Source of the DNA: Legionellales bacterium
GTDB lineage: Bacteria > Pseudomonadota > Gammaproteobacteria > JAGOUN01
NCBI GenBank assembly: GCA_027486005.1
Contig: JAIXPZ010000042.1
Span: 2,894-66,893 of the forward strand
Length of the DNA: 64,000 nt
Direction of reading: 5' to 3'
Shown: positions 18,342 through 63,668 of the stretch, piece by piece
Numbering within the stretch: the stretch's first letter is position 1
How the letters are laid out: the number at the start of each line of letters is the position of its first letter
Position numbers and translations under genes: made by a program
Notes under the pieces: model-generated
Told to the model about the DNA's origin: nothing
Database searches by the model: none
Seen by the model: the letters and a program-made list of their open reading frames with translations, nothing else

Positions 18342-18451
18342 TTTCGTCCTCACTATCCTTTTCTCGGTTTTGCGATGAAGCACTTAAGTATTTGATTTAT
18401 AATAACTTTTAACATTTTAACTCTAATAATCAGGTTTGCGATGAAGCACTT

Positions 18452-19861: not shown

Positions 19862-19891
19862 ATAGAGGCCTTATTCTATAAAAAATTATTT

Positions 19892-20710
19892 TCAGACATG
19901 AGGTTTTTTCGCTTCTTCAGTTTCTATTTTATGATAAACATCAATATATTTTTTGATAACTTCAGCCCCTGTAAAAAATTGAGTGAATTCGCCGTAGTTT
20001 TTGTCAATTGGTTTGAAATACTCTTTAGTTATGCAATCAGTTATTAACACTCCGTTTTCATTAACATCATATGAAACTCGCGCGGCTCGATCTATAAAGC
20101 AAGCTAAAATATACAGGCTTTTTGGTGATATTTTATTTGTCTTGGCTATGTCATATAAAATTTTGTCATCATGCTTCACAGGTGCGCCATGATAATCATT
20201 ATACTCTATGCCAAAGAAAAACTGATAAAAGTCAATTTTTGAAACTATATCAATCAAGCTATAAGCTGTATTAATATAATCGGTTAGATAGATTTCTATG
20301 TGTGCTTTTTCTGTTACTTTTTCGCACAAACCTTCAGTAGCCTTTAATGCATCAATCACTTTATGCCATATTATATTATTTTTCGCAACGGGCACAGATC
20401 TAGACTTGCGATCAATATTGAGTTCAGCAAAACCTTGAAAGTATTTCTGTATTTGTTCAAGATAGAACTTCGACGATTTTTCTTTAGAATCTTTACGGTA
20501 GTTACATATCGCATAAAGCAAGACTGCGGCAGTAAAAGCTGATCCTGAAGCTGTAAAATAATCTTTTTCAGATGGGCCTAATATTAAAAATATAACGCCC
20601 AGACTGAAAAAAATCAAAGTTAAAATAACGATAAAAATAGTTGCTATCAAGCTTAAATATTTTTTTATAATATACCACCATTTTTGGCGTGCAATATCTT
20701 TAGTGCTCAT
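19892..20710 (-). CDS. Hypothetical 2-TM membrane protein, partner of the Abi_C-like gene
   Basis: N-terminal hydrophobic helices (YLSLIATIFIVILTLIFFSLGVIFLILG and FTAAVLLYAICNY) followed by a soluble domain with no recognised motif. Its start overlaps the upstream gene's stop at 20710. Confidence 0.5.
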   Translation of the reverse strand: MSTKDIARQKWWYIIKKYLSLIATIFIVILTLIFFSLGVIFLILGPSEKDYFTASGSAFTAAVLLYAICNYRKDSKEKSSKFYLEQIQKYFQGFAELNIDRKSRSVPVAKNNIIWHKVIDALKATEGLCEKVTEKAHIEIYLTDYINTAYSLIDIVSKIDFYQFFFGIEYNDYHGAPVKHDDKILYDIAKTNKISPKSLYILACFIDRAARVSYDVNENGVLITDCITKEYFKPIDKNYGEFTQFFTGAEVIKKYIDVYHKIETEEAKKPHV

Positions 20711-21579
20711 TATGATATCTCTGTAGTTGTGTTCAGTTTTTCAACGTGTGTTTCAAATAAAAAAGTGACTAACGTTGCGGCGGCTCCAGCCGCAAGCTTT
20801 GCATGTCGGGATTGTAATGCTTGTGTTTTTGCTGGTTTACCATGCCCTGTCCCATATAGCCCTCGAAGTTGAGAAAGGTCATTTCCTATAGTGCCAAGGC
20901 TTCGCAAAATTGCTTTTATTAAATCAGAGCCTCGTTTATTATCTTCAACTCCTTCGGGAACTAGTGATAATTCTTTCAATAGCATTTTTGTTAATGTTGG
21001 TATATCGAGAGCGCCTGTTATCGGGATACCTCTCTCTTCAAGAATTGTTTTGCATGTTGTTTCGATTAATTCTTTAGCAGTACCAATAACCAAGGACGGA
21101 TCTGTTTCTACTGATTCTTTCATGCGTAGAATCTGCAGTTGAATGTGTGCCCCATCAAGCTTGTCAGGAAAACACATTAAATCATTAAATGTTGAGGGAG
21201 ATATCGGTTCGATTAATTTATTATTAATCCACTCTATACCGTCTCTTTTAAGTTGTGTCATTAGTTCTCCCGCAATATTACAATTATTTTCATAAGTAAT
21301 ATTGCAGTAGAAACCTAGAGGTTGAGCTGTAAGATCAAGAATTACATTTTCATAAACTTTTAATATTTTACGCACGCTAATCCGATTGGACCAGTTAACT
21401 GTATGGTAATATTGTTCCACCAGTATTCGCCGTTCACCACTAATACCTTCTGGCTGGTAACTGCTATCACAAAGGACTTCATATGCTTTAAACGCATCGT
21501 GAATTACGCGAAGAGTGCTATTGACAAAATATTCTCTAAATTTAATACGCGTTCTAATGCTGACAATTGATGACGTCAT
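20710..21579 (-). CDS. Abi_C-like (abortive infection C-terminus, HEPN-superfamily) protein
   Basis: C-terminal region NDLSQLRGLYGTGHGKPAKTQALQSRHAKLAAGAAATLVTFLF has the R-x6-H (RGLYGTGH) signature of the HEPN/Abi_C family. Its start overlaps the hsdS stop (21576-21579), indicating co-transcription with the R-M genes. Confidence 0.5.
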   Translation of the reverse strand: MTSSIVSIRTRIKFREYFVNSTLRVIHDAFKAYEVLCDSSYQPEGISGERRILVEQYYHTVNWSNRISVRKILKVYENVILDLTAQPLGFYCNITYENNCNIAGELMTQLKRDGIEWINNKLIEPISPSTFNDLMCFPDKLDGAHIQLQILRMKESVETDPSLVIGTAKELIETTCKTILEERGIPITGALDIPTLTKMLLKELSLVPEGVEDNKRGSDLIKAILRSLGTIGNDLSQLRGLYGTGHGKPAKTQALQSRHAKLAAGAAATLVTFLFETHVEKLNTTTEIS

Positions 21580-22901
21580 GCTGTGACCTCATATTCGCAT
21601 GACTTCAATTGCCCGGAAATTAAGCGTGGCAGCAATATATCACGTAGTGTTGAAAGAGTTTTAATTTGTTTTAAGTTGGCAGAAAATCTATTTCGCAGAG
21701 GCAAGGTCGATAAATCAAATGCATGCAGTACATCGTGGCTTGGAATAATAAGTTTGAGCTTTGCAAGCATTGAGCGGCTTAATTCTGTTTGGCCAGTGGA
21801 ACCTTCACCCAGTTGTTCAATTTCCGCTTGTCGATTTGAAAGCGCTAACCCAAGATAATTCCATGTTAATAATCCTCCCACACGGACTACAGTAACATGT
21901 GAATCAGCAATTATTGGTTCATCAATTGAGAGAATTTGTGCAACACGTCCAAGAGTGCCAACACCTGTGGAATTTACCAGTACATCTCCAACTAATAATT
22001 CTCGACCTTCAATTTTTCTTTGTGCAGGATCATGGGTGCGCGCTTTTGTTAAGTCAACAATATTATCCCGTATACACTTTTGATTGATGACAGTAATCCC
22101 CGCATTTACTGTATATTTGGGTGAGATGCCTCGGCTAAGATATGTGACTGTTTCTCCAAGTGAAGAAACTTTCCATCCTAATGGTATTAATCCCAGCTCT
22201 GACTCTTCAAAACTATCAGGAAAAAGTGCCGCTGTCTCTGCATCCATTCTTTCAGGTTCACGACCTTCAGCTTTTGCACGTACTGGATCGAAATCAATAA
22301 ACCAGGATTTGAAAAGGGTTTGAGCAATGGATTCGATGGTAATATTGCTTTTGCGTAGTAATTCGATACGATCATCAAGCGATCCTAAAATCTCTAAAAT
22401 TTCTTTTTGCTTTTTTAACGGCGGAACCGCAACTTGCATTTTGTCTACACGAGTAATGTAAATATGTTTGATCGTTGAGCCATCAGAATCATTTTCCATA
22501 ACTTGCTGGTAATAATGAGAAGATAAAAGATATTTCAAGAAGTACGGATTAATTAATTTATTTGGCCTCAATAAAGCAACGGATTGATTAATGCATAAGT
22601 TTTCTTTATCGACAACCGCTACTCTACCAATGGAGCCGTCTTTAGTGAGAAGCACATCACCAATTTTCGGTTTACTTTTATTGGACAGTTTATTAGTAAA
22701 TGCATCTAAAGTTGTCCGTCGTGCCGTTACATAATTTATGCGTCCGTCTACTATATCTTTTGCTGTTAATTTCCACGGGCCATCTTTAGCATCAGGCATG
22801 GGATTTGTAAATCCGTAAGTAATCAAATCTAAAAAGTGTCTTAAATCTTCAATATACCAATCGTTAGGAACAAGCCCAATTTCTGCTTGTTTAAAATTCA
22901 T
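21576..22901 (-). CDS. hsdS: Type I restriction-modification specificity subunit HsdS
   Basis: Two target-recognition-domain halves separated and followed by the conserved HsdS repeats (LRKSNITIESIAQTLFKSWFIDFDP and LRDILLPRLISGQL). Position between hsdM and hsdR. Confidence 0.9.
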   Translation of the reverse strand: MNFKQAEIGLVPNDWYIEDLRHFLDLITYGFTNPMPDAKDGPWKLTAKDIVDGRINYVTARRTTLDAFTNKLSNKSKPKIGDVLLTKDGSIGRVAVVDKENLCINQSVALLRPNKLINPYFLKYLLSSHYYQQVMENDSDGSTIKHIYITRVDKMQVAVPPLKKQKEILEILGSLDDRIELLRKSNITIESIAQTLFKSWFIDFDPVRAKAEGREPERMDAETAALFPDSFEESELGLIPLGWKVSSLGETVTYLSRGISPKYTVNAGITVINQKCIRDNIVDLTKARTHDPAQRKIEGRELLVGDVLVNSTGVGTLGRVAQILSIDEPIIADSHVTVVRVGGLLTWNYLGLALSNRQAEIEQLGEGSTGQTELSRSMLAKLKLIIPSHDVLHAFDLSTLPLRNRFSANLKQIKTLSTLRDILLPRLISGQLKSCEYEVTA

Positions 22902-23061
22902 AGCTAGGTCCTTTTGACTTTTTTGAATTAAATTTCTCCAGTAATGATTTTGTGACGCTCTGAACTACTTCATTAAGCTCACAATTACATTCATCTTCCT
23001 TTATTAATTGTGCTATAGCTTGTGCCTCAATTGAGAAATTATCTTTGTAAGCTCTCATCAT

Positions 23062-24618
23062 TTACACCTCAAACCCAAGTTTCGCTAAATTTTTACGAAT
23101 GAAATCATCCAAGTCAGCACCTTTCGTCATTTGATCTCCAAGCTTTGCAGTAAGTTTTTGCATTTTATCTACAAAAGCTTCTACATTATCTTCAACAGCT
23201 TCCGTGCCGACATAGCGGCCTGGGGTTAGTGCATGACCATGTTCTGTAATTTCAGCAAGTGATACGCTTCGACAAAATCCTGCAATATCAGCATATGTTT
23301 CTTTTGCTTCACCATCGCCACGCCACGCTTGTACAATATCAGAAATTTTTTGAATATCTGCGTCGGTGAATTCCATTTGCGAGCGGCTGATCATCGTGCC
23401 GAGCTTGCGTGCATCGAGGAAGAGCACTTCACCTTTGCGGAGAGTTTTATTTTTTGAGAGAAACCATAAACAAGCCGGAATTTGCGTATTAAAAAATAGT
23501 TGTCCAGGTAAAGCGATCATACATTCTACAACATCGGCTTCTACCATTTTTTTACGTATATCGCCTTCGCTATTTTGATTAGAGCTCATCGATCCATTGG
23601 CGAGAACAATGCCCGCGCGGCCGTTGGGTTTGAGATGGTACAACATGTGTTGCAGCCAGGCATAGTTGGCATTGCCTTGAGGTGGTGTTCCATAGACCCA
23701 GCGTGGGTCGTTGTCTAAACTTCCATGCCACCAATCAGAAATATTGAACGGTGGATTAGCTAAAATAAAATCTGCACGTAAATCTGGATGTTGGTTCTTG
23801 GTGAAAGTATCGCCAGGCTCTTTACCGAGGTTGAAATCGATACCGCGAATCGCAAGGTTCATTGCCGCTAAACGCCATGTCGTCGGATTAGATTCTTGTC
23901 CATAAATTGAAACGTCACCTAATTTTCCACCGTGTGCTTCAATAAATTTTTCAGATTGCACAAACATACCACCTGATCCACAACACGGGTCATACACTTT
24001 TCCATGATGCGGCGCGAGAACGGCCACAAGTGTTCGCACAATGCTAGCGGGTGTATAAAACTGTCCGCCCTTCTTGCCTTCAGAGCTAGCAAATTGGCCA
24101 AGAAAATATTCGTAAACCTGCCCTAATAAATCTTTTGCATTTTGACCAGCGGCACCAAATCCAATAGAAGAAATTAAATCGACCAACTCACCTAACTTGC
24201 CATCCGGTAATTGCGCACGCGCATAACGCTTATCAAGAATGCCTTTGAGCTTTGGATTATCTGTTTCGATCAGCGACAGTGCATTATCAATTAGTTTGCC
24301 AATATCAGGTTGCTTTGCTTGCGCTCGTAAACTTTCCCATCGAGCTGCTTCTGGAACCCAGAACGCATTCACTTCTCTATAATAATCACGGTCCTCTAAT
24401 TCTTTCGCAAGAGATTCTGCATCTGTATCATGCAGATAATATTCATCTTCTTTATTGGTAAAACGGCAAGTGAGTTCATCACGACGCATTTGAAAAGTAT
24501 CAGAAATATACTTCAAGAAAATTAAACCCAACACAATGTGTTTGTATTCTGCAGCATCCATGTTGGCGCGCAGTTTGTCAGCGGTTGCCCATAGGGTTTT
24601 CTTTATATCGTCTAACAT
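23062..24618 (-). CDS. hsdM: Type I R-M N6-adenine DNA methyltransferase HsdM
   Basis: N6-MTase motif IV NPPF (ILANPPFNISDW), an AdoMet-binding region (VYDPCCGSGGMF) and the HsdM N-terminal domain. Confidence 0.95.
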   Translation of the reverse strand: MLDDIKKTLWATADKLRANMDAAEYKHIVLGLIFLKYISDTFQMRRDELTCRFTNKEDEYYLHDTDAESLAKELEDRDYYREVNAFWVPEAARWESLRAQAKQPDIGKLIDNALSLIETDNPKLKGILDKRYARAQLPDGKLGELVDLISSIGFGAAGQNAKDLLGQVYEYFLGQFASSEGKKGGQFYTPASIVRTLVAVLAPHHGKVYDPCCGSGGMFVQSEKFIEAHGGKLGDVSIYGQESNPTTWRLAAMNLAIRGIDFNLGKEPGDTFTKNQHPDLRADFILANPPFNISDWWHGSLDNDPRWVYGTPPQGNANYAWLQHMLYHLKPNGRAGIVLANGSMSSNQNSEGDIRKKMVEADVVECMIALPGQLFFNTQIPACLWFLSKNKTLRKGEVLFLDARKLGTMISRSQMEFTDADIQKISDIVQAWRGDGEAKETYADIAGFCRSVSLAEITEHGHALTPGRYVGTEAVEDNVEAFVDKMQKLTAKLGDQMTKGADLDDFIRKNLAKLGFEV

Positions 24619-25100: not shown

Positions 25101-26951
25101 ATAAAAGGCTATGGGTGAGTAGACCAGGGGAATCTCACCCCTAGCCCCTCTTAGAACCGTACGTGACAGTCTCCCGTCATACGGCTCCCATTACTCAACC
25201 GGCGACGCTAGTCCATAGCGCCAATGCACAAAGAGTTGAGGATAGTGTTTGAATACTCTCCCCAAGTACCGTCTAGCTCTCTTTTTGCTTGCCTGTCCTG
25301 TATTGCTTGCATATTTGCGTTGCGCCCATCTTTGCAGATGTTTCTCTATCTGCACAAACGCCTCTGTCACTTCACTTCGATAAAATCTTCCATAATAATT
25401 CACCCATCCACTGACTCGCGGATTGGTTAATTTCGCCAGTTCCTTGAGTGACATACAGGTCTTTCGATGCAGACGCCAGCTGCGAATGGTTTGGCGAATG
25501 GCTGTCTTCGCTGCATTGCTTATAGCGGGAACAAAGCCGACAAAACCTTTGCCTTCTTTACTCATGACTAATCTTCTTCTGAAGGTGTAGCCTAAGAAAT
25601 CAAAGCTTCTGGGTATGTCTTCTTTTTCTTCTTTAGCTACGCCACAGTAAACAACTTTCGTTTTCTGCGGATGCAATTGCAGCTTGCACTGCGCCATTCG
25701 AGCCTCAATTTCTGCTTTGAGCTGTAATGCCTCATTTTGTGATGTGCAATGGACAATAATATCATCAGCATAACGCTCAAACTGAACGTTAGGGTGTTGT
25801 TTTCTTATCCATTTATCAAACACGTAGTGCAGAAAAATATTCGCTAACAATGGACTTACAACCCCGCCTTGAGGCGTGCCTGTTGTTCTGGGTTGCAATG
25901 ATCCATCGGCCAATTGAGCTGGAGCTCGTAGCCAATGTTTCACGTGCAACATTATCCATCGATCGATACTGTGCTTTTCTAGCGCCAATATGAGCAATTC
26001 ATGATCAATATTGTCAAAGAAACCCTTAATATCAAGATCGATCACCCAGTCACGCTTCCAGCAGCGCTGCCGACATTGTCCCACCGCATCGAGCGCTGAC
26101 TTGTTTGGTCGATAGCCATACGAGTCTTGATCAAAACGGGGTTCGAAGTGAGGCTCAAGGTGCATCGTGACCACCATTTGAGCAATACGGTCGGCGACCG
26201 TGGGTATTCCCAAATAGCGTTGTCCGCCGTCTTTCTTCGGTATCGCTACCGTTTTCACGGGCGGTGGAAAGTAACTGCCTGAGGACATTCGATTCCACAG
26301 TTTATACAGATTGTCTTTGAGTTTTACCTCAAAGTCTGCAATCGACTGGTTATCGACACCCGCCGCGCCTTGGTTACGCTTTACACGCAAATACGCTTGC
26401 CATACATCCTGTTTAGGAATAGCAAACGGTTTTGTTTTACTCAAAAGTTCCTCCCACCATTGGTTGACCTCTAACTAAAACGGAGTAACTCAACCCCTTC
26501 GCTCCATAGCCATTACAGCCACTTCAACACTACTACGGGTTGATCCGCCCCTGTGCTCTGCGTTGGTATTTTCTCTTGGCTTTTATACCTCGAAAGTTCC
26601 CTTATCATCAGAACGACAGGTTCCCGCAGTTCCATACTTAAGCCTAAAATAGGATCATGCTACCTCTACACCGGACACCGCCTATCCAATCATCAGGCCC
26701 CCGATAGACTTTATTCCTAGAGCCATAGAACTCACCCTAGTTTCGATGTCGTCCGATCCATTTCGACGTGTCAACGGTAGTTCACTTGCGTTCATCTTCC
26801 TATTTCGCACATGACTGTTAAAACAGCCTTTTCCTTATCGCTCACTACCAGGGCTCTTTACCCTAGCAGCATAAGGTTGTTTAAAGCCTACTCCTGAAAG
26901 TCGGCTTTGGTGGGCCTACCACCATCTTAAGTGCAGCTTGCTGCGGCACAC
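25101..26951 (-). mobile_element. Group II intron, about 1.85 kb, encoding an En-less RT/maturase; boundaries are approximate
   Basis: The minus-strand 5' end reads GTGTGCCGCAG (reverse complement of 26941-26951), matching the GUGYG consensus. Domain V reads GAGCCGTATGACGGGAGACTGTCACGTACGGTTC (reverse complement of 25154-25187). Domain VI reads GGCTAGGGGTGAG...CTCACCCATAGCC with a bulged A (about 25107-25150). The RT ORF sits in domain IV. Confidence 0.85.
25191..26444 (-). CDS. Group II intron-encoded reverse transcriptase/maturase, no endonuclease domain
   Basis: RT blocks are present (AIPKKDGGQRYLGIPTVADRIAQ and YADDIIVHC, the YADD active site). A maturase X-domain tail is present and there is no H-N-H motif. 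Confidence 0.9.
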   Translation of the reverse strand: MSKTKPFAIPKQDVWQAYLRVKRNQGAAGVDNQSIADFEVKLKDNLYKLWNRMSSGSYFPPPVKTVAIPKKDGGQRYLGIPTVADRIAQMVVTMHLEPHFEPRFDQDSYGYRPNKSALDAVGQCRQRCWKRDWVIDLDIKGFFDNIDHELLILALEKHSIDRWIMLHVKHWLRAPAQLADGSLQPRTTGTPQGGVVSPLLANIFLHYVFDKWIRKQHPNVQFERYADDIIVHCTSQNEALQLKAEIEARMAQCKLQLHPQKTKVVYCGVAKEEKEDIPRSFDFLGYTFRRRLVMSKEGKGFVGFVPAISNAAKTAIRQTIRSWRLHRKTCMSLKELAKLTNPRVSGWVNYYGRFYRSEVTEAFVQIEKHLQRWAQRKYASNTGQASKKRARRYLGRVFKHYPQLFVHWRYGLASPVE

Positions 26952-27049: not shown

Positions 27050-27822
27050 CATATAAATAGGTACATAAATAGGAACAATATAGGTACGTATATAGGAACA
27101 ATTAATAGTTGGATCGATTATGAAATAAATGAGCGAGGTTACTTCTACTCTGATAGCTTTCATCAACTGCGACAATTAAACCATTTTAGAACTTTTATAC
27201 CCTCCCCTCGCCTCTAAGCCAATTACAACCATGTTAATGATCGCTCTTAAAACATATAGCTTTAAAACGAATCATTATATAGGAACATTAATGGGAACAA
27301 ATATAAGTACATATATAGGTACAATAATTATTAGTACGCTGAAGATATTTTGATTATATACGCGAATATTCTGTTCCTATATTTGTACCTATTTAAAATA
27401 ATAAGTACAAATATGGGGACATATATAGGAACAACATAACAACAGAGATCTGGAGGCTATAAAAAAATAATATAGGAACAAAAATAGGTACAATGTATAT
27501 TTATCAAATATTAAATTTGTCGATTTAATATAGGTACAAATATAGGAACAAAATATTTTATTCCTTATTTTTAAATGTATTATGAAATACATTTGTGCTT
27601 TATAATTTTAAATTAATAAGAAAATACTACAGTTAAAATAGGTACAGTACAATACAATATAGGAACACAAATAGGATCAAATATAGAAACATATATGAGT
27701 ACATATATAGGAACAAATATTGGTGAGATTTTGACAAAGATCTGTTCCTATATTTGTACCTATATTAATAAATAGAAACAAATATAGGAACTTAATTGGG
27801 TACAAATATAGGAACAAAATAT
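27050..27822. repeat. Iteron array: about 30 copies of an 11-bp motif ATATAGGAACA / ATATAGGTACA in both orientations, often as 22-bp dimers (GGTACAAATATAGGAACAAA)
   Basis: Read directly, for example at 27056-27100, 27284-27330, 27375-27400 (inverted), 27404-27440, 27470-27500, 27526-27560, 27635-27725 and 27740-27822. It lies immediately upstream of parA. Confidence 0.85.
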
Positions 27823-32996: not shown

Positions 32997-33662
32997 CTAT
33001 TTAAAGCAATTTCTTGATTCAACTAATGTCGCTAAAATCCTATCATCGTGATCCAATAACCTCATTGGAAAACTAGCTACGTTAGGATTTAATGGTTTCA
33101 AATATTTATGTTCACCATCGTCAATTAATTGTCTAAGTACTGCTTTTGAAGCTATGTTTACTAAAATATAGCTTCTATCTTGATATTTTGCATCTGGATC
33201 AAAAATTAATATGCAATTATAAGAAAAAATAGGTTCCATTGAGGTGTCAGGCATAATTAATGCAAAAGCATTGTCACTGATATGATTGCCGACGGTAATT
33301 TTGCCTAACTCTAAAGTTTGAGCGGAGGTACCTCCAGAAAAGCTACTCCATGACAATATGGGAATGGCTTTTATATGGTGTGACATTAGTTCATGAGTAT
33401 CATCGGTTTTATCGTCCGAAGCCGACTCTTCTATATTAATAGGCATAGGCTTTTCACCTACTAATTGGTCCATATCGATAGAAAAAAAATCAGCGATTGG
33501 TTGTAAAGAGGTGGCGTAGGGCCTTGTGGATTTGCCAGTTACTAACCTATGAATCGTTGGAGCAGGCAAATCAACTGCTCTTGCTAAATCTACAGGCTTA
33601 ATGTCTTTATCAAACAATAGTTTTTTAAGAATTTTTGCGAGATCTGGATATTTTTTAGACAT
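32997..33662 (-). CDS. CI/LexA-like repressor: XRE-family HTH + S24 peptidase domain
   Basis: N-terminal HTH (IKPVDLARAVDLPAPTIHRLVTGKS). The C-terminal S24 region has the catalytic Ser in MPDTSMEPIF and a Lys in NIASKAVLRQL. It is divergent from the T4SS-side genes. Confidence 0.7.
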   Translation of the reverse strand: MSKKYPDLAKILKKLLFDKDIKPVDLARAVDLPAPTIHRLVTGKSTRPYATSLQPIADFFSIDMDQLVGEKPMPINIEESASDDKTDDTHELMSHHIKAIPILSWSSFSGGTSAQTLELGKITVGNHISDNAFALIMPDTSMEPIFSYNCILIFDPDAKYQDRSYILVNIASKAVLRQLIDDGEHKYLKPLNPNVASFPMRLLDHDDRILATLVESRNCFK

Positions 33663-34069: not shown

Positions 34070-34483
34070 GTGATGTCATATCCATCAAAAAACTTACAAA
34101 TTCTATTGGTTGAAGACGATTTAGTCACTCGATTGTATATGCGTCTGCTATTGCAAGAGCTGAATTGCAAAGTATTGTTTACAAAAAATGGCGAAGAAGC
34201 CGTGGAAAAGTTTAACAATCAAGTTGACGGCATTCTCATGAATATCAGCTTACCTGGTATAGATGGGTGTGAAGCCGCAAGAGTTATCAATCAACAAAAT
34301 CCAAATAATAGAGCAATAATTTATGCGCTTTCCTCAGCTGCGCCTAATACCGATACATATTTTCTTAAGGCAGGAATTCAAGGCTTTGTCCAAAAGCCCT
34401 GTCTAAAAAGCGATTTAAAAAAGTTTTTATTACTGGTAAGTCAAAAAAAGCATAGTAGCCGTGGAAAGAGCATGTCTGTGTGA
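34070..34483 (+). CDS. Stand-alone response-regulator receiver domain, atypical: Asn in place of the phospho-acceptor Asp
   Basis: CheY-like fold signature (LLVEDD acidic pocket, LPGIDG, conserved K in the FVQKP region). When DGILMNISLPGIDG is aligned to the consensus LLDIMLPGMDG, N falls at the phospho-Asp position. Confidence 0.6.
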   Translation: MMSYPSKNLQILLVEDDLVTRLYMRLLLQELNCKVLFTKNGEEAVEKFNNQVDGILMNISLPGIDGCEAARVINQQNPNNRAIIYALSSAAPNTDTYFLKAGIQGFVQKPCLKSDLKKFLLLVSQKKHSSRGKSMSV

Positions 34484-50318: not shown

Positions 50319-52346
50319 ATGTCACGTTATGCGTTTGAAAATTTATTCCGAGAACCGATAGAACTTTATGGCGGTGTGCTGTTATTGATCATCGGATTGT
50401 TCCTATATTTGTTCCCATATCTGTTCCTATTATTAGGCGTTACAAAGTGGGTGGCTTTGGCGCTGGTATTGGGATTAGCATTGAAACATATTACTAGCGG
50501 CCTGCGTGTTTTTCGCTTCAAACGCAGGCTTTTACAAATGAATGCTTTTTCAATGAGCACACAAGCGCTACCTGCTAATCGCCATCAACTTTATTTAGGA
50601 GAAGGGTTCCAGTGGCAGCCCATACACCGTCAGCGATTACACCTATTAAATCAACTGGATAACCAAGGGTATTTGCAACCTTCAAAGCTTTATCAGTGGA
50701 TCGATACAGCAGCACGTCGTCATCCTGAAGGTCGATTAAATCAGTGGCGTACATTACCGCTTTCACCGTTTAAACCTATGCCTGATATTGGAGGAAAACC
50801 GTCGTTGCACGGTGTTGGAAGTGATACTGAACAACCTGTGTATCTACATCAGCATAATCGCAATAGTCACATGGTTGTGTTTGGGATGACGCGTGTCGGC
50901 AAAACACGATTGATGTGCAATATCGTTGCGCAAGATATCCGTAACGGTGAGGCTGTTTTAATCATTGATCCTAAAAGCGATCTTGAGTTGCTGCAGGATA
51001 TTGTGGCTGCTTGTAAGGTGGCTGGACGTGATAAAGATTTAATGATTTTACACGCTGGGATGCCAGAGTTTTCTGCCAAATATAATCCATTGAATAATTT
51101 TGTGAACATCAGTGAAATTGCGACCCGTGTGACAGGCGCTATTTCGGCCGAAGGAGAAGGCCAACAGTTTAAAGATTTTGCGTGGAAGTTTTTAAATATC
51201 GTATCTACCTGTTTAATGGAGATGGGTGAGCCAATTAGCTACGCCACGCTTGCCTTTTATGTGACACGCCCAAAACAGCTTCTTTATCAGTACGGCGAAA
51301 AAATGTTTCCGATGAAAGACCCTCGCTATCAAGAAAAAATTGAACAAATACTGGCAGAAAATAGTAATAAGATTGATAAGAAAGGTAATAAAAAAGGTGA
51401 TATGACGCAACAAGAAGCGGTACAAGTGTATGTCGAAAATTATATTCAAGAAACGCTCGAAAGAGGAGACCGTAGTATTTATGACGCTATCATTGTCGAT
51501 CTGCATTATGCCGCGAATCTAGGCGAAGAATACTATTCTAAAATTACCGCAAGCTTAGGTCCTGTTTTTGATAAAATTAATAAGACATCTGCGCGCGATG
51601 TATTTTCTTGGGAAGGTGAAAGCACACTTCCTGTTATTCGACTTGAAGAAGTCATTCGCGATAAAAAAGTCGTATACATGGGGCTCGATGCACTTTCTAA
51701 CGAAGCGATGGCCAAAGCTATTAGTCAAGCCTTAATTGCCGATTTAGTAACACTTATCGGTAAGCTCTATAAAACTGCACCTGATAAAAAATTTCCATTA
51801 TGCTTACACGTTGACGAATTTAGTAACATGGTCAGAGATGAGTTTATTAATCTTTTAAATAAAGCCGGTGGTGCAGGGATTAAAGTTGCGGCTTATACAC
51901 AAACCGTCAATGATTTGGGTGCGGTTTTTGGAACCAATAAAGATAAGCCTAAAATGCTTCTGGGTAACTTTGGTACGATGATTATGCTGCGTGTTGCTAA
52001 TGACGACACTGCAGAAGTTTTTGTGAATTGCTTAGAGCGAACTCAAACACGTAGTGCCGTACCTTACACCACGACATCCGATAAACCAGACGCACAGGAT
52101 GGCGATTTTTTCACGACGCAAAATACCGATTCAGTGAGTGAAGAATATCAATCGATCATTGAGGTCAATCATTTATTTTCATTGCCTAAGGGACAAGCGT
52201 TTGTGCTGACTGACGGCGGGAAACTTTACAAGATTCGAATTCCGCTTCCTGAAGCTCAAAAAGGGCTGCCGAATAACTTTGAAGAAATTCTAAAAAAAAT
52301 TAATACGAAGTCAGGCTTAAATCAGTATGAAGAGGTGAAATTATGA
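50319..52346 (+). CDS. traD: Type IV coupling protein TraD (conjugative coupling factor, SXT/TOL-like)
   Basis: Two N-terminal TM helices. Walker A GMTRVGKT. Walker B/DE region (CLHVDEFSNM). 675 aa. Confidence 0.85.
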   Translation: MSRYAFENLFREPIELYGGVLLLIIGLFLYLFPYLFLLLGVTKWVALALVLGLALKHITSGLRVFRFKRRLLQMNAFSMSTQALPANRHQLYLGEGFQWQPIHRQRLHLLNQLDNQGYLQPSKLYQWIDTAARRHPEGRLNQWRTLPLSPFKPMPDIGGKPSLHGVGSDTEQPVYLHQHNRNSHMVVFGMTRVGKTRLMCNIVAQDIRNGEAVLIIDPKSDLELLQDIVAACKVAGRDKDLMILHAGMPEFSAKYNPLNNFVNISEIATRVTGAISAEGEGQQFKDFAWKFLNIVSTCLMEMGEPISYATLAFYVTRPKQLLYQYGEKMFPMKDPRYQEKIEQILAENSNKIDKKGNKKGDMTQQEAVQVYVENYIQETLERGDRSIYDAIIVDLHYAANLGEEYYSKITASLGPVFDKINKTSARDVFSWEGESTLPVIRLEEVIRDKKVVYMGLDALSNEAMAKAISQALIADLVTLIGKLYKTAPDKKFPLCLHVDEFSNMVRDEFINLLNKAGGAGIKVAAYTQTVNDLGAVFGTNKDKPKMLLGNFGTMIMLRVANDDTAEVFVNCLERTQTRSAVPYTTTSDKPDAQDGDFFTTQNTDSVSEEYQSIIEVNHLFSLPKGQAFVLTDGGKLYKIRIPLPEAQKGLPNNFEEILKKINTKSGLNQYEEVKL

Positions 52347-55696: not shown

Positions 55697-56213
55697 AATT
55701 ATTAATAATAAAGCACTGTGTTGTGCTGAATTAATTTACCTACTGCTGATAACTCATCCCTTTAATCGTCAGCGGAGCGTTTAGCTAGGGACATCAGGAT
55801 ATAAATGCAAAGCTTATTTGCCAATCGTCCTGACAGATCGTCGATCTGAACACCCATAGAATACCTATTTGATTGAATTTATTCAATTTCGTAGATGCTA
55901 TGGTCGTTCTTTAACAATGTGATATCACAAATTAAGTTTCTGTTTTGAATGAAGTGACTTTTAAATAAGAAGTATTAAAAAAATGATACTTTTGAAAATG
56001 CGTTTTTGAACATAATGACTTGCCAAGAATCAACTTAATGCACAAGGAGAATATACCTTGAATATTATGTTTTTTCTTAATCGAGACAACACCGATATTA
56101 TTCATAATGTTAGTGTTTTACCTACCGCTGCTGCGGAAGAATAACTCTTCCTGCAGTCGCGGAAGTGTTTTCTTCAGTAGCTTTTCTTAAACAAACTACT
56201 GAAGGAGACAATT

Positions 56214-59449: not shown

Positions 59450-59737
59450 TTAATCGTCAGACTTACTGTTAACCGCTTCTTTCAACTGAGTCGCTGGCTT
59501 GAAGTTGACCACTACTGAGCGTGGGATAATCATTTCTTTTCCCGTTGATGGATTGCGGCCTTTTCTTTCTTCTCTTATTTTAGTCGCAAAGTTACCGAAT
59601 TTTGGCACAGCAATCTTATCTTGTTTAGCAAGATTCTCTGTGATTGTTTCAAATATCGCCATAAAAATGGTATCTACATCTACTTTAGTAGCGCCTGTTT
59701 TTTCTGCAATAACGGCAAGGAGTTCGGCTTTAGTCAT
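59450..59737 (-). CDS. HU/IHF-family nucleoid-associated DNA-binding protein
   Basis: MTKAELLAVIAEKTGATKVDVDTIFMAIFETITENLAKQDKIAVPKFGNFATKIREERKGRNPSTGKEMIIPRSVVVNFKPATQLKEAV is the canonical HU fold signature, including the arm RNPSTGKEMIIP. Confidence 0.9.
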   Translation of the reverse strand: MTKAELLAVIAEKTGATKVDVDTIFMAIFETITENLAKQDKIAVPKFGNFATKIREERKGRNPSTGKEMIIPRSVVVNFKPATQLKEAVNSKSDD

Positions 59738-60906
59738 CGATTATCTCTCTTTTTGTGGTTAAAAGTGAGCGCAGATCCTATCATATCTGTAGATCAACCT
59801 CATGCTCTTATTTCATTTGATCGTCTTGGAGTGAGCAATAAACAGCCATATTATTGCGTCAAGACGATCATTTTTCTTAGATTCTTTGGGCAATAAATAA
59901 GAACAACTATCCCAAATAGCTGTGTATTTTTGCTTAAAGAATCTTGCGTTTTTGTTTGAAAATTTTGGTGATAGGTCAAAAATTTGGAACAAAAAACGCT
60001 CCTATAGTAAACATGTACTTAATGATTTTGTTGCAAAGTTTAGCGCAACCTAGTCATTAAGTGGGTGTTTGCGGTTCTGGCAAAAGCGTTAGCGTTGCGA
60101 TGCGTCACTGCGATGAGCGCTTTACTAAGCGTGATATTACGCAGTGACGCAGCGAAAGCTGTTCGAAAAAGCGTTTGTAATCAACTGATTACAAACACAT
60201 GGAAGCGTGGAAAAAAACGCTCGGCGTTTTTTTGCAGTTTTTAAGCGCGGACATCAAAAAAATCCGCGCGCCTGTTGGCTGTGGAACTCGTGTGTCAAAC
60301 CGCAGGTTTGTCTACATTTCCACATATTGTGAAATTGTGAATTGCGTGCGTAAACTTTTTTTGTAAGCACCTGTTTGCAAAAAAATGTTTTCCACGCTAT
60401 TCACAATTTTTTCTAAAAAATATTGAAAAAGTAAAAGAATTCGGTAATATAAGGAAATGAGGATTACTGATGAGCGGGCGAAATTCCTGTGAAACCAGAA
60501 ATGGTCTAATCCAAACTGCTGTTATCTTAACTCTTTAGTCGTCAGCGGAGCATTTAGCTTAGAGTCATTGGGATATAAATGCAAAACTTAGCTTTTGCCA
60601 ATCGTCCTGACAAATCGTTCGCGATTTGACCTACCTTTATTTTGTTACAACTTAACATTTTGAAACTTTATTATTTAAAAATTTAACATTGACAACGGCG
60701 ATTATTTGATTGGTCTATTTTTAATCCATTTAAATTTAACATAACGAATTGTCTGACAATTAGAAGTGAAAAATTGAGTTTGGTATTGACTAAACAATTA
60801 ACGCGTAACACGACAATGGCATTGTCGCTCAAGTTATTTGAGCGACCTGCTTTAAACATTTACTGACTGATACTGTAATATTTTACTTAACACTTTAGGA
60901 ACACCT

Positions 60907-61131
60907 ATGGAAACGCTAGAAAAACTGAACATAGAAAATGACACAACTGAAGCATCGAAAAAGCAACGACTATTAAGCGACGAAACGTATCAACTATTGA
61001 TGAACACTCAAGAAACGATATTTAATGAAACTGGATTTAGGGTACCTCTTAGAAAGATATTCGATAAACTTGTTAACACGGAATCAATGCATCACATATC
61101 AAGTACATTTATTCAAAAATTTAATTCTTAA
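60907..61131 (+). CDS. Small hypothetical protein
   Basis: 74-aa ORF preceded by AGGAACACC. Possibly an excisionase/regulator-sized protein, but no motif recognised. Confidence 0.3.
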   Translation: METLEKLNIENDTTEASKKQRLLSDETYQLLMNTQETIFNETGFRVPLRKIFDKLVNTESMHHISSTFIQKFNS

Positions 61132-61298: not shown

Positions 61299-62129
61299 AT
61301 GGCATATACCATACAGCGGCCACTTGCTGAATTTAGAGAAATTCTAGCGACTTATAAACAAGGGTCACCCAGAACAAGAAACGGCTATAAGTCGGTTATT
61401 AAAGTCATTATTAAAGACTTATTCTTTTTGAAAGTGTTTTTCAATTCATTTCATGAGGTGTCTCTCGACCAGATTAATAGCCTTATTAATCATTGGAAAA
61501 AAAGAAAATTATTGAATGTGACTATTGGGAGTAGGCTTTCAATTTTACGAAAATATTTAGGATTGTTAAATCATTCAGTTCCCTTTCCATCCAATTTAGA
61601 GCTGGGCCTTACAAGAAAAAAATCAAAGTTAACGGTGGCACTTATTGCTGCTCCACTACAAATACTCGATCAAGTTGAACATCGGTTGACGAAATATATT
61701 TTGAAATTACAAATTTATTTCGGTCTTACGAAGCAGGAAGCCATAAAATTTCGAATTCAACCTTATCAGGCCGTTAAAAATGCACTGTATATATCGAAAT
61801 CAGTTTCTCATAATAACAAGGATAGATTGATCAGCCTCCATTTTCCAGAACAAGAACAGTTGCTAAGTCAACTTGCTATTGAGCTCGGGTTAAAACTCTC
61901 ACTATCTGAAAAATATGATAAGGTTACCCTTGTGAATTTATATAACACCGAACTTGTGCTTGCTAATCATTCATCGAAAACTTCATTTAGAGCGCTTTAC
62001 GCACGCAATCTTTTTGACTATCTCGTTAATCAACAGCAACTCACAAAAAAAGAAGCGCTTGTTGAAATAGCAGGGGAGATGGGGATTTCTGATTTAAAAT
62101 TGATACGGGATTGGATAAGCGATGAGTAA
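61299..62129 (+). CDS. Integrase-like (tyrosine-recombinase-fold) paralogue, probably degenerate
   Basis: Shares the block LQIYFGLTKQEAIKF with the downstream paralogue (LQKEFGLRREEAIKF). That block carries K where the downstream copy has R (candidate catalytic Arg I), so it is probably degenerate. Confidence 0.4.
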   Translation: MAYTIQRPLAEFREILATYKQGSPRTRNGYKSVIKVIIKDLFFLKVFFNSFHEVSLDQINSLINHWKKRKLLNVTIGSRLSILRKYLGLLNHSVPFPSNLELGLTRKKSKLTVALIAAPLQILDQVEHRLTKYILKLQIYFGLTKQEAIKFRIQPYQAVKNALYISKSVSHNNKDRLISLHFPEQEQLLSQLAIELGLKLSLSEKYDKVTLVNLYNTELVLANHSSKTSFRALYARNLFDYLVNQQQLTKKEALVEIAGEMGISDLKLIRDWISDE

Positions 62130-63015
62130 TACCGCGTTAGGAAGTGCTTATTATACGGCTTCTAAGACGATTAGTCGGGCAAGGCTATCGCATCAGTCTT
62201 TGAACGATTACAAAGGTATTCTGCGCCTTAGTCTGCAGCAGTTAAGTCAGTTGGGATTTAAATTACGTTCTATTGATCAACTAAAACAAAAACATGTCGA
62301 TAAACTTATTATGGGTTGGAAGGAAAGTCAGCTATCCTCTGGAACGATTAAAAATCGGCTTTCTGTTTTAAGACGTGTGACGGAACTAACGGGAAGAGAG
62401 CAAGTTATTAAAAATAATGCAGAATATCATATTGCGCCGCGACGATATTATACCGAAATATCAAAAGCAGTACATGTTATCGATTTAGATAGAATTGAAG
62501 ACCCTTATGTACGAGCGTCATTAGAATTACAAAAGGAGTTTGGTTTGCGCAGGGAGGAGGCGATTAAATTTAAGCCCCATCAAGCAGATGAAAAATTAGC
62601 CATTAGATTACAAGGTTCCTGGACAAAAGGAGGAATCCCCCGATTAATACCCATTACACGCCAATCACAACGTGAATGTTTAGATCGAATCAAGTTGTTA
62701 GTAGGTAAAAAAGATTCACTCATTCCAAAAGAACTAACCTATCGGCAACAACGTAATCGCTATGATTATTTTACAAAGAAAAATGGATATCACAAGCTTC
62801 ATGGGTTGCGCCACGCGTATGCGCAACACCGATATGAAGCAATCACGAATGAAATGACAAAAGGCTATGGTTGGAAATCACCTATTGATGGTGGGCCAAG
62901 TACATCACAGATGAATGCTTATGAAAGACACGTTGATCTACAAGCGCGACTTATGATCAGCCACGAACTCGGGCATTCGAGACTAGCCATAGTGAGGAGC
63001 TATTGTGGAAAGTAG
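62122..63015 (+). CDS. Integrase-like protein (tyrosine-recombinase catalytic-domain-like)
   Basis: GLRREEAIKF (candidate Arg I). HGLRHAYAQHRY (H-x-x-R box). A C-terminal Tyr lies in RLAIVRSYCGK. Start overlaps the upstream paralogue's stop. Confidence 0.45.
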   Translation: MSNTALGSAYYTASKTISRARLSHQSLNDYKGILRLSLQQLSQLGFKLRSIDQLKQKHVDKLIMGWKESQLSSGTIKNRLSVLRRVTELTGREQVIKNNAEYHIAPRRYYTEISKAVHVIDLDRIEDPYVRASLELQKEFGLRREEAIKFKPHQADEKLAIRLQGSWTKGGIPRLIPITRQSQRECLDRIKLLVGKKDSLIPKELTYRQQRNRYDYFTKKNGYHKLHGLRHAYAQHRYEAITNEMTKGYGWKSPIDGGPSTSQMNAYERHVDLQARLMISHELGHSRLAIVRSYCGK

Positions 63016-63271: not shown

Positions 63272-63668
63272 AGTTACACTTTTAGACCGCTTTTGGAGTT
63301 GGAGCCAGAAATTTTCCTATTCATTATTTCAAAATCATCAAGGTAATAAATTTACACGCGCCGGTATAAATTATATACTTCAAAAATACGAACGTAAGGT
63401 ACAAGAAATTTATCCGCATTTTAAGCAGACTATCAGTCCGCATACGCTACGGCATACAAAGGGTATGCACTTACTGCAAGGAGGCGTTTCTTTAGATATA
63501 ATTCGTGATTTCTTGGGTCATGTAGACATTAAAACAACAGAAATTTATGCAAGAGCCAATCTTGAGATGAAACGTGCAGCACTTGAAAAAGTAAGTACAA
63601 CACAAACGCCTAAACTGCCTTCCTGGAAAGAAAATAAGTCGTTATTGCAATGGCTACAATCGTTATAG
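63272..63668 (+). pseudogene. Truncated tyrosine recombinase: C-terminal catalytic ~130 aa only, no start codon
   Basis: Open frame after TGA at 63269-63271 encodes ...ISPHTLRHTKGMHLLQGGVSLDIIRDFLGHVDIKTTEIYARANLE. This is a XerC/D-like HxxR...LLGH...T..Y box. There is no ATG until 63465 and no N-terminal core-binding domain upstream in any frame. Confidence 0.6.

Follow-up and report, generated by a model that had tools for sequence, protein, structure and literature searches.

The palindrome-rich gap and its neighbouring genes

The window, by which we mean the whole 64,000-nt stretch of DNA analysed, carries MPF_G T4SS genes, a TraD coupling protein gene (50319-52346) and TopB upstream of a gene-free gap. 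This gap spans 1169 bp, from an HU gene (59450-59737, minus strand) to a 74-aa ORF starting at 60907, as had been described. On the far side of its hairpins lies leading-region-like gene content (SSB and ArdA in relatives), and 18 ATAGG[A/T]ACA repeats (iterons) are found elsewhere, upstream of parA (27057-27816). In the original prediction, the palindrome-dense, GC-richer segment at 60090-60320 was put forward as a candidate oriT, replication or regulatory hub. The features of the segment and of the adjoining genes are as follows.

60095-60157, no strand: hairpin IR1, with the outer-stem core CGTCACT/AGTGACG at 60103-60109 / 60143-60149
60173-60196, no strand: hairpin/palindrome H2, GTTTGTAATCA-ac-TGATTACAAAC
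60208-60236, no strand: hairpin H3, TGGAAAAAAACGC-tcg-GCGTTTTTTTGCA, an A/T-tract stem, terminator-like on both strands
60245-60269, no strand: hairpin H4, GCGCGGA-N11-TCCGCGC, a 7-bp perfect GC-rich inverted repeat adjoining an A/T tract
60281-60324, no strand: hairpin H5, TGTGGAA...TTCCACA around CAAAC-cgcag-GTTTG
60332-60409, no strand: hairpin H6, a long imperfect inverted repeat with 38-nt arms, immediately 5′ of the promoter
60423-60450, plus strand: sigma-70-type promoter, TTGAAA-N16-TAATAT, directed at the ribozyme and relaxase genes
60461-60512, plus strand: hammerhead ribozyme with an open stem I and capped stems II and III; cleavage predicted 3′ of C60506
60507-60633, plus strand: structured RNA (~125 nt), release by the ribozyme predicted, covariation in RNAalifold
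55734-55853, plus strand: structured RNA, second copy, lacking a hammerhead
60907-61131, plus strand: 74-aa ORF, first gene of the module
61299-62129, plus strand: 276-aa relaxase paralogue, catalytically degenerate
62122-63015, plus strand: 297-aa MpsA-like relaxase (MOB_M, tyrosine-recombinase-type)

A scripted repeat check found most of the reported inverted repeats exactly in place: GCGTCACTGCG and CGCAGTGACGC at 60102-60112 / 60140-60150, TTTGTAATCA-ac-TGATTACAAA at 60174-60195, AAAAAAACGC-tcg-GCGTTTTTTT at 60211-60233 and CAAAC-cgcag-GTTTG at 60296-60310. The perfect arms of IR1 are in fact 12 nt long (60101-60112 / 60140-60151) and its imperfect arms 18 nt (60095-60112 / 60140-60157), and H2 is a perfect 11+2+11 repeat at 60173-60196. 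The GCGCGGA/TCCGCGC repeat exists, with its right arm at 60263-60269 and a loop of 11 nt rather than 12. The TGTGAAATTGTGAATTG repeat, reported as a tandem at 60323-60340, is present at 60328-60344; it is not a separate tandem and overlaps the left arm of H6. H6 itself (60332-60369 / 60372-60409, 79% complementary) had been missed.

When every 230-bp window in the 64 kb is ranked by summed perfect-inverted-repeat arm length, this span falls in the top 0.5%, which bears out the palindrome density, and the sole denser region is the iteron field at 27556-27785. The rise in GC content is equally clear (0.46 at 60100-60299 vs. 0.27–0.38 in the flanks). As single-stranded DNA, 60085-60420 folds at −88 kcal/mol, compared with −49.4±4.0 kcal/mol for shuffled sequences (z = −9.6), and the opposite strand gives z = −8.6. 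The palindrome cluster occupies the 5′ half of a longer non-coding block of 570 bp (about 60076-60640). A tRNA scan found none, and blastn of the gap DNA against plasmids gave no DNA-level match. A possible long-range pairing between 60204-60214 and 60388-60398 was rejected because it is not kept in relatives.

It had been assumed that no relaxase lies near the segment; the adjoining “integrase-like” genes turn out to be a relaxase module, as judged by MpsA homology and PF12835. The 297-aa protein matches PF12834 (1.3e-14) and PF12835 (9.5e-11), the latter being the Burrus group's signature for the MpsA-type relaxase class (PMC10484663), and SGI1 MpsA itself matches PF12835 at 4e-11. In BLASTP the 297-aa protein shows 28% identity to SGI1 MpsA over 254 aa (E 9e-19; L230:3979-4941), in an alignment that runs through to the C-terminal catalytic tyrosine. 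Residues R143, K169, H227, R230, H285 and Y294 are invariant in 17 homologues and align with the MpsA motifs FGLRFEE, TKGG, HGERH, ELGHGR and SYLG; the catalytic residues of MpsA are R162, H247, R250, H251 and Y319 (Kiss 2019, PMC6414798). A PDB sequence search with the 297-aa relaxase gave no match.

The 276-aa protein, whose gene would be co-transcribed with that of the relaxase, is 26% identical to the 297-aa protein (E 1e-16). Its Arg-I, Lys, His, His/Trp and C-terminal Tyr positions are all replaced, and it has just weak matches to N-terminal SAM-like domains. We propose, by analogy, that it serves as a DNA-binding partner and functional analogue of MpsB. In high-GC loci with the inverted repeat about 540–780 nt upstream there is no space for a partner gene in between, and one such locus (L046) shows none. 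The 74-aa ORF has counterparts (30–51% identity) in 5 related loci, one of them a Legionella plasmid; it matches no Pfam or NCBIfam family and possibly encodes a relaxosome accessory protein.

MOB_M relaxases were recognised only recently; a 2026 preprint reports that, in the species it analysed, no other relaxases are as common in chromosomes (10.64898/2026.01.13.699239). Standard tools label them integrases, and neither a nic site nor a recognition rule is known. The preprint describes the MOB_M relaxases of MPF_G ICEs and IMEs such as SGI-4 as tyrosine-recombinase-like and annotated as integrase; the window has the same combination of a tyrosine-recombinase-like relaxase with MPF type G. 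It names oriT families rM1–rM6, and the text searched mentions neither hairpins nor inverted repeats nor secondary structure. The CONJscan MOB_M HMM has a cut-off of cut_ga 84.

Conservation of IR1 and the other hairpins

Six related elements keep the non-coding block, in each case 5′ of this three-gene module, with compensatory changes in every hairpin and in 42 of the 99 predicted pairs overall. Block identity is 74–77% over about 560–580 nt with loci whose relaxase is only 65–75% identical. In the six close loci the arms of IR1 are invariant, while its 27-nt insert holds an inner 6-bp stem-loop that covaries. H2 has 10-bp arms that covary symmetrically around 4 central nucleotides that vary freely (6 loci). 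A compensatory change in H3 is seen in related locus L004 (GTGC/GCAC), compensatory variants of H4 occur in L003 and L004, and H6 is kept with compensatory changes in 5–6 loci. H5 is the block with the highest sequence conservation in the hairpin region, and its inner stem shows 4 pair types at one position. TTCCAC motifs cluster at H5, with 4 of the window's 27 within 190 bp; their interpretation as DnaA boxes was rejected, as they do not match the consensus.

Beyond the close clade, only IR1 could be traced, and by pattern: an nhmmer profile built on the entire hairpin region gave no match other than the six close loci, and H2–H6 were not found beyond them. The exact IR1 core occurs at most 2.6 kb upstream of an MpsA-like gene in 55 of 90 related loci, drawn from ICEs, islands and small plasmids, where 0 would be expected by chance. 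It lies 344–2292 nt (median 637) upstream of the relaxase gene. Across these 55 loci the four outer pairs are Watson-Crick in 52–55, with 4–5 pair types each, and the arms remain complementary as the insert varies from 5 to 32 nt. Most loci have a single copy per element. The hairpin ranges from Legionella plasmids to Pseudomonas islands, and the hairpin region accompanies the relaxase gene, not replication genes, including in chromosomal islands. On one Legionella plasmid the order is the same as in the window (IR1, hammerhead, small ORF, paralogue, relaxase), and on the small plasmid pSIO1 IR1 stands beside a coupling-protein gene. A separate pattern, TGTGGAACTNGTGNGTNAA, gave at least 120 metagenome stretches and 11 viral ones, all taken as chance matches, none being homologous by blastn.

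Strand assignment by G-T vs. A-C pair counts and by alignment folding of both strands showed no difference. At one IR1 position there are 15 G-T and 0 A-C pairs on the plus strand, but the loci concerned look like one lineage and the bias was given no weight.

Promoter, hammerhead ribozyme and structured RNA

Immediately downstream of the hairpins, the promoter is conserved in the aligned loci, with an invariant −35 block (ATTGAAAAA) and a TATAAT-like −10. It is followed by a hammerhead core: CUGAUGA at 60467-60473, GAAA at 60491-60494 and GUC at 60504-60506. The core is invariant or nearly so in 14 aligned copies, where just N7 varies (U/A). In this alignment 95.1% of stem cells are paired, vs. 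76.7% in shuffles and 30–40% in slid controls, with the caveat that a scan demanding pairing had supplied its more distant members. Covariance model R1 found additional copies independently. This model detected 20 copies, all on the plus strand, and 2 more on the Legionella plasmid. Double (compensatory) changes occur in 10 of 15 pairs, and the covariation score is 0.508 vs. 0.05–0.08 for slid controls.

Judged by its core and its covarying stems, 60461-60512 is a previously unannotated hammerhead ribozyme. It shares with type I hammerheads (the Rfam Hammerhead families and RAGATH-1-hammerhead) all core nucleotides, the three-stem junction, the GUC triplet and three covarying stems. Unlike those, it falls below every Rfam threshold, the best match being RAGATH-1-hammerhead at 14.7 bits against a gathering cut-off of 56.3. 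Its stem I is short (6 bp), starting about 3–4 nt past the predicted transcription start, and its setting is a conjugative DNA-processing module and leading-region genes. Rfam otherwise returned no known RNA family (whole window at gathering thresholds; gap at E≤5; 60440-60660 at E≤10).

The structured RNA downstream contains the helices CUGCUGA/UCAGCGG, UUGGGA/UCCUGA, GCAAA/UUUGC and CAAAUCG/CGAUUUG, and a probable pseudoknot ACUCU/AGAGU. In an RNAalifold analysis of 7 copies, G-U pairs change to A-U or G-C on the plus strand only, and model R2 of the RNA gave 13 matches, again all on the plus strand. One is the second copy in the window (125.5 bits), which lies upstream of DUF7222/DUF6876 genes. 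R2 matched neither the SGI1 sgm-sRNA region (L230) nor the RNAs 3′ of the Legionella hammerheads.

A candidate origin of transfer and its alternatives

On comparison of sequences, we consider it probable (roughly 0.7) that the segment is the oriT, together with a promoter region, of an MPF_G conjugative element with an MpsA-like MOB_M relaxase. The oriT part of the original prediction is supported by the comparative evidence: MpsA homology, the family-wide IR1, and an IR1-like hairpin in the mapped SGI1 oriT. The leading-region-like genes beyond the hairpins also fit with an oriT. The frame in which it had been placed, that of ICEclc and PAPI-1, is a different one: the relaxase here is of the MOB_M and not the MOB_H type. 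Elements of the ICEclc (oriT1/oriT2) and PAPI-1/ICEHin1056 families resemble the window in their MPF_G T4SS and in the similar order of parA, T4SS, TopB and SSB. These families use a MOB_H TraI, whereas in the window it is a MOB_M gene that accompanies the cis site, and a MOB_H/TraI_2 relaxase was not found among the scanned window ORFs of at least 90 aa (PF07514, TIGR03760). The window ends at 64000, and a canonical MOB_H relaxase could lie past it; SGI-4 is reported to have a MOB_M relaxase as well as a traI-like gene.

A close studied counterpart is SGI1, where MpsA and MpsB act at an oriT directly upstream of mpsA (PMC6414798) within a mobSGI1 module comprising oriT_SGI1, sgm-sRNA, mpsA and mpsB (Kiss et al. 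2019, PMC6414798; Nagy et al. 2021, PMC9299015). The SGI1 mob region used here (L230) comes from one “plasmid” record, an SGI1 primer query having given no match in E. coli genomes. Both systems have a homologous relaxase with PF12835 and the same catalytic residues, the same order of inverted-repeat array, RNA and relaxase gene in one orientation, a locally GC-rich oriT (putative in the window) and a second, non-catalytic protein derived from a recombinase, in the window a possible counterpart of MpsB. They also seem to have in common the hairpin core CGTC(A/T)CT...AG(T/A)GACG, as the IR3 hairpin of SGI1, CCCCGTCTCTGT...ACAGAGACGGGG (L230:3560-3599), matches the window's IR1 with one compensatory change. 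Its core, CGTCTCT...AGAGACG, sits in the experimentally defined 125-bp minimal oriT, and deleting IR3's right arm lowered transfer 40-fold (Kiss 2019, PMC6414798). Because the one-mismatch IR1 pattern that finds it is expected by chance 0.6 times per 7 kb, what carries the link is the location within the 125-bp oriT, the fact that the change is compensatory, and the extension of the stem.

There are also differences from SGI1. The host element here is self-transmissible, with its own MPF_G T4SS and coupling protein, whereas SGI1 is an IME dependent on IncA/C plasmids. The partner protein is a dead paralogue of full length whose gene precedes that of the relaxase, in contrast to the 98-aa MpsB encoded after it, and a 74-aa ORF is present in addition. 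The hairpins number six instead of three, and the RNA is preceded by a hammerhead ribozyme, none being mentioned in the SGI1 papers, and has no homology to the SGI1 region detectable with R2. The SGI1 repeat that is itself called IR1, CGCGCAC-GAAT-GTGCGCG followed by AATTATA, is readable in L230; its arms have no sequence counterpart in the window segment, which shows no overall alignable similarity to oriT_SGI1. H4 recalls this essential repeat in style only, and we counted the absence of CGCGCAC/GTGCGCG against an oriT, as we did the absence of a strand preference in folding. The recombinase-like relaxases MobK (Klebsiella pIGRK) and TcpM (Clostridium pCW3) also need a catalytic tyrosine and have several inverted repeats in an oriT directly upstream of their gene, a likeness taken from their descriptions only; those proteins are much smaller and more distant, and MobK is a homodimer.

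Within this putative oriT, we propose that IR1 is the recognition hairpin of the relaxase. No nic site is known for MpsA-type oriTs, and attempts to find one in SGI1 failed (Kiss 2019, PMC6414798). The module would read, in order, oriT hairpins (60095-60409), promoter (60423-60450), hammerhead (60461-60512), RNA (to about 60633), 74-aa ORF, inactive paralogue and active relaxase. The 297-aa protein would recognise IR1, either extruded from duplex DNA or formed in single-stranded DNA, and nick nearby through its C-terminal tyrosine; pairing with the dead paralogue might let only one strand be cut. It could then guide the cut strand to the coupling protein of TraD type (50319-52346) and to the T4SS. 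IR1, a hairpin of 11 bp or more with an invariant CGTCACT/AGTGACG core, thus offers a concrete candidate for a recognition element, and could help to find oriTs and “non-mobilizable” plasmids that are actually mobilisable. The natural active/inactive paralogue pair suggests a route from recombinase to nickase. H2–H6 are clade-specific and overlap the promoter region, and therefore probably bind accessory or regulatory proteins.

The ribozyme may trim the transcript to leave a defined 5′-OH end on the downstream RNA or the operon mRNA, and the structured RNA may fill the role that sgm-sRNA has in SGI1 transfer. The predicted self-cleaving ribozyme and the RNA sit where SGI1 encodes its small RNA, between oriT and the relaxase gene; sgm-sRNA is essential and mechanistically unexplained. 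If this link holds, the role of RNA in MOB_M transfer becomes directly approachable. A stronger version, which we regard as speculative and rather unlikely, is that the hammerhead-processed RNA is a trans-acting relaxosome cofactor or scaffold needed by the relaxase at the CGTCACT hairpin, making the initiation of transfer RNA-dependent. If true, this would generalise the sgm-sRNA requirement of SGI1, early expression of the leading region would be coupled to this RNA through its extra copies before ssb and anti-restriction-type genes, and the heterodimer of active and dead recombinase would account for the conversion of a recombinase fold into a single-strand nickase.

Could the segment be purely regulatory, with the palindromes acting as operators for the 60423-60450 promoter, IR1 as an autoregulatory site, and transfer starting elsewhere? 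The conserved promoter directly downstream, the clade-specificity of H2–H6 and the pairing without strand bias would suit this explanation, as would looping between H2 and its diverged second copy at the tip of H6 (60360-60381, 186 bp away). That a conserved hairpin 5′ of a DNA-binding protein's gene could be an autoregulatory site was likewise counted against an oriT. However, complementary arms around an insert of such variable length describe a hairpin and not a fixed-geometry dimer site on duplex DNA, IR1 lies 540–780 nt from the gene in single-gene loci, far from any core promoter, and a hairpin resembling IR1 is inside a functionally mapped oriT. We therefore consider an exclusively regulatory role improbable. 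Some of H2–H6 may be plain operators, because they are absent outside the close clade and adjoin the promoter. What survives of the proposed “regulatory hub” is that a conserved promoter and a ribozyme/RNA come after the hairpins.

Were the segment instead a target of site-specific recombination, for instance to resolve multimers or to bring about inversion, with both recombinase-like proteins as true recombinases, this would be in keeping with the full recombinase catalytic set kept in the 297-aa protein, the frequent adjacency of recombinase genes to their sites and the plasmid-like partition functions of the element (parA, iterons). Such a site requires an arm-spacer-arm core with a fixed 6–8 bp spacer, which is not seen (IR1 inserts are 5–32 nt). 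The partner is catalytically dead, which is incompatible with four-strand exchange by an active-site pair per site, and most loci have one IR1 copy per element. We judge this explanation to be distinctly improbable.

Less probable still is that the segment serves the element, excised or incoming, as an origin of replication, a site of single-strand initiation or an ssDNA promoter. Its secondary structure, dense on either strand, and a position at the border of the leading-region-like gene set would fit, and in ICEclc the excised ICE likewise replicates with the help of oriT1 and the relaxase (PMC6561031). The replication alternative in the original prediction is nonetheless not supported, as the segment has neither iterons nor DnaA boxes: TTWTNCACA has no match in 60000-60500, and the direct repeats there are two-copy and weak. 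The 18 repeats at 27057-27816 are a much better partition/replication candidate, and the hairpin region travels with the relaxase gene.

Very unlikely indeed are terminators or RNA-stability elements of the flanking transcripts with no DNA-level function, which the original prediction had named as the refuting outcome: H3 and H2 fit a loose terminator pattern (5 sites vs. 1.6 expected) and the primary sgm transcript of SGI1 passes through oriT, but no U-tracts accompany IR1, H4, H5 and H6, transcription of HU on the left runs away from the segment, and the hairpins are conserved with the downstream module while the left neighbours change in identity and orientation (L001, L003, L004).

Palindromes in a conserved non-coding block

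All inverted repeats that the original prediction listed at 60090-60320 were confirmed from the sequence and by script, barring two small coordinate slips. The GCGCGGA/TCCGCGC repeat is present, but TCCGCGC lies at 60263-60269, hence the loop is 11 nt. TGTGAAATTGTGAATTG is found at 60328-60344 and is not an isolated tandem, as it overlaps the left arm of an imperfect inverted repeat with 38-nt arms (60332-60369/60372-60409). By summed perfect-repeat arm length, the 60090-60320 span falls in the top 0.5% of 230-bp windows across the 64 kb, and, folded as single-stranded DNA, each strand of 60085-60420 exceeds its dinucleotide shuffles in stability by ~9 SD. The local rise in GC content (0.46, vs. 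0.27-0.38 in the flanks) and the ~1.1-kb gene-free region also held, with 1169 bp separating the HU gene (59450-59737, minus strand) from the next ORF (60907). Features of this region are:

60095-60157: hairpin IR1
60173-60196, 60208-60236, 60245-60269, 60281-60324 and 60332-60409: hairpins H2 to H6
60423-60450: promoter TTGAAA-N16-TAATAT, conserved in relatives
60461-60512, plus strand: hammerhead ribozyme, starting 10 nt past the promoter
60507-60633, plus strand: structured RNA of ~125 nt with a probable pseudoknot, directly after the ribozyme and before the relaxase operon
55734-55853, plus strand: second copy of the structured RNA, without a ribozyme

In six related loci, with relaxases 54-75% identical to that of the window, the non-coding block is likewise followed by the 74-aa ORF, the paralogue and the relaxase, and its left-hand neighbour changes between loci. 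The block (~60076-60640) matches L001 and L004, two of the related loci fetched, at 74-77% over ~560-580 nt. In its hairpin half RNAalifold predicted seven helices, with at least one double compensatory change in 42 of 99 pairs; a strand preference in this pairing was looked for and none was shown. In relatives, genes left of the hairpins run towards them and include SSB and ArdA, a content that would fit a leading region.

The MpsA-like relaxase, its paralogue and linkage to IR1

To the right of the gap, the 74-aa ORF is followed by two overlapping genes (61299-62129 and 62122-63015) originally described as integrase-like. That description captures recombinase-type domains, with clear Phage_int_SAM_2 and Integrase_1 (PF12835) matches in 62122-63015 only and not in 61299-62129, but 62122-63015 encodes a homologue of the MpsA relaxase. 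PF12835 is the signature of MpsA (PMC10484663), which serves Salmonella Genomic Island 1 (SGI1) as an atypical relaxase of the tyrosine-recombinase type (PMC6414798). According to a 2026 preprint, which names this class MOB_M, its members mostly carry a wrong annotation as integrases and are associated specifically with MPF_G ICEs or relaxase-only islands (10.64898/2026.01.13.699239).

The SGI1 mobilisation region (L230) was retrieved from a public record via a primer sequence in a published supplement, and MpsA itself gave a PF12835 match. The 297-aa product of 62122-63015 is 28% identical to MpsA over 254 residues (E 9e-19), in an alignment reaching the C-terminal ELGHxR...Y motif, and 17 homologues all keep its catalytic Arg, Lys, His, Arg, His and Tyr. 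The 276-aa upstream protein is its paralogue (E 1e-16) with every catalytic residue replaced, so the pair is predicted from these residues to comprise one active and one dead subunit. Alignment showed the same pairing in L004 and L229, and two-gene arrangements are alike in other Legionella-type loci; no dead partner gene is present in L046, the single-gene locus examined.

Across the six loci the arm sequence of IR1 is invariant and the inner stem-loop covaries. The exact core CGTCACT-N(4-50)-AGTGACG was then searched in all fetched relatives (relaxases 40-50% identical), drawn from Gamma- and Betaproteobacteria, Nitrospira and one Binatia MAG. Of 90 loci, 55 had it at most 2.6 kb upstream of an MpsA-like gene, as compared with 0 in shuffles. 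At the four base pairs outside the core, pairing is Watson-Crick in 52-55 of the 55 cases, with 4-5 pair types each, and the arms are separated by an insert of 5-32 nt. Because the core is kept, the outer pairs covary and the insert varies in length, these alignments indicate a hairpin with a sequence-specific stem, as opposed to a fixed-spacing dimer site.

Plasmid loci comprised L226 (NZ_CP126976.1), L227 (pSIO1, NC_006860.1), L228 and L229 (NZ_CP038274.1). The 4.9-kb Vibrio plasmid pSIO1 carries the CGTCACT hairpin beside a coupling-protein gene, a 4.4-kb Gallibacterium plasmid carries a variant of the core, and a 47-kb Legionella plasmid has the order IR1, hammerhead, small ORF, paralogue, relaxase seen in the window. 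MOB-suite types all three as non-mobilizable; since a CGTCACT hairpin lies upstream of an MpsA-like gene in pSIO1 and the Legionella plasmid, these two are probably mobilisable despite their typing. An MpsA-like gene was found in 216 PLSDB records, 130 of them typed non-mobilizable. In Pseudomonas pseudonitroreducens (L046:7300-19100), an island adjoining mnmG/gidA begins with an unknown ORF of 397 aa, directly past whose stop codon lies a CGTCACT hairpin. One MpsA-like gene comes next, then RhuM and a type I R-M system, and the whole resembles a mobilisable island of the relaxase-only kind.

In SGI1, the 125-bp oriT defined by experiment (L230:3551-3675) contains CCCCGTCTCTGT...ACAGAGACGGGG, which is the IR1 core of the window with one compensatory A-T to T-A change, and an inner stem-loop is present too. 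This repeat is IR3 of Kiss et al., and transfer is 40-fold lower without its right arm (PMC6414798). A one-mismatch IR1 pattern is expected by chance 0.6 times per 7 kb and is thus not rare, so the link between IR1 and IR3 depends on where the match lies within oriT, on the compensatory nature of the change and on the extended stem. The most important inverted repeat of SGI1 (CGCGCAC/GTGCGCG plus an A/T tract) is without a sequence counterpart in the window; H4, which is the GCGCGGA/TCCGCGC repeat and also lies beside an A/T tract, is alike in style only.

That an oriT lies upstream of a MOB_M relaxase, and that MOB_M occurs in MPF_G ICEs, is already known. The literature texts searched make no mention of a family-wide CGTCACT hairpin. 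What sets the present module apart from the characterised one of SGI1 is its active/dead paralogue pair, extra small ORF and larger hairpin array, and foremost the hammerhead ribozyme and RNA.

The hammerhead ribozyme and the structured RNA

The hammerhead has a complete layout (GGAUUA-CUGAUGA-stem II-GAA-stem III-C-UAAUCC), with cleavage predicted after C60506. Its core is invariant, N7 alone varying, and stems I-III all covary. A covariance model detected 20 copies in related loci and 2 on the Legionella plasmid. Every copy has the orientation of the relaxase strand; some lie between IR1 and the relaxase genes, the rest before other genes such as ssb. Rfam at its thresholds did not report 60461-60512.

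In the helices of the adjoining structured RNA, G-U to A-U or G-C changes are restricted to the plus strand, which argues for an RNA and not a DNA structure. Further copies lie at L003:1860-1982, L003:3054-3176, L004:4449-4572, L216:4028-4149 and L217:5503-5624; within each element the RNA is repeated, after the ribozyme and again before ssb or DUF7222/DUF6876-type genes. It matched no Rfam family, and copies were found in the close clade only. In SGI1 the gene for the essential sgm-sRNA lies precisely between oriT and mpsA, and the RNA matures through cleavage of a longer transcript (PMC9299015). Position and strand agree with those of the structured RNA, but the RNA model did not match the SGI1 locus, and we regard the correspondence as analogy, not homology.

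A candidate oriT and the element that carries it

An oriT, as originally proposed, is the likely reading, given that IR1 accompanies the relaxase gene in several types of element and that the SGI1 oriT contains a closely similar hairpin. IR1 would be the recognition hairpin, near which the active subunit would nick via Tyr294; the dead paralogue may supply a second DNA-binding half with no second cut, and the nucleoprotein would pass to TraD and then to the T4SS. The ribozyme would leave the downstream RNA or mRNA with a uniform 5′-OH end. H2-H6 are confined to this clade and border on the promoter, and may bind accessory or regulatory factors.

The strongest rival is a purely regulatory segment. 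As the regulatory switch of the element, however, a divergent gene pair just upstream of the T4SS operon is a more obvious choice than this segment. One gene encodes an S24-peptidase/HTH repressor, LexA/CI-like (32997-33662, minus strand), and the other a response-regulator receiver that stands alone (34070-34483). The variable IR1 insert and the dead partner protein make a true recombination site unlikely. The replication origin also suggested originally is unlikely as well, as the segment has no iterons or DnaA boxes and the 18 ATAGG[A/T]ACA repeats lie upstream of parA instead. The left-hand genes, which vary and are not oriented as terminators would require, contradict hairpins kept merely as terminators, the outcome named originally as counting against an oriT.

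The candidate oriT lies with an MPF_G conjugation system (ICEHin1056/PAPI-1/ICEclc-type) encoded in the window; no MOB_H/TraI_2 relaxase was found among the window ORFs that were scanned. The genes include:

27912: parA
MPF_G system: PilL-like, TIGR03759, TIGR03751 and TIGR03755 proteins
MPF_G system: TraC-, TraU- and TraG_N-type proteins
50319-52346: TraD coupling protein
beyond the TraD gene: TopB, DUF7222 and DUF6876 genes

The iteron-like field upstream of parA (27057-27816) has its ATAGG[A/T]ACA copies on both strands, often paired 12 nt apart, and is probably the element's partition site or replication origin. The motif recurs at 29211, 29268, 29715, 50398 and 50422, giving 23 matches in the window vs. 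0.78 expected. Between this field and a type I hsdM gene is a group II intron (25114-26923, minus strand; Rfam domains 26810-26923 and 25114-25189) with an internal reverse transcriptase/maturase ORF (25191-26444). A tyrosine recombinase C-terminal fragment at 63300-63668 (HTLRH...GH...Y motifs), without a matching N-terminus, is probably a truncated integrase gene. Defence genes abound in a cargo block at 1847-24618:

1847: Abi_2
2765-4009: tyrosine integrase
7363: DUF3987 protein
8958-15221, minus strand: 2087-aa protein with weak TPR matches only
15252-24618: type I R-M hsdR/hsdS/hsdM
18452: Schlafen/AlbA_2 protein
20710: Abi_C
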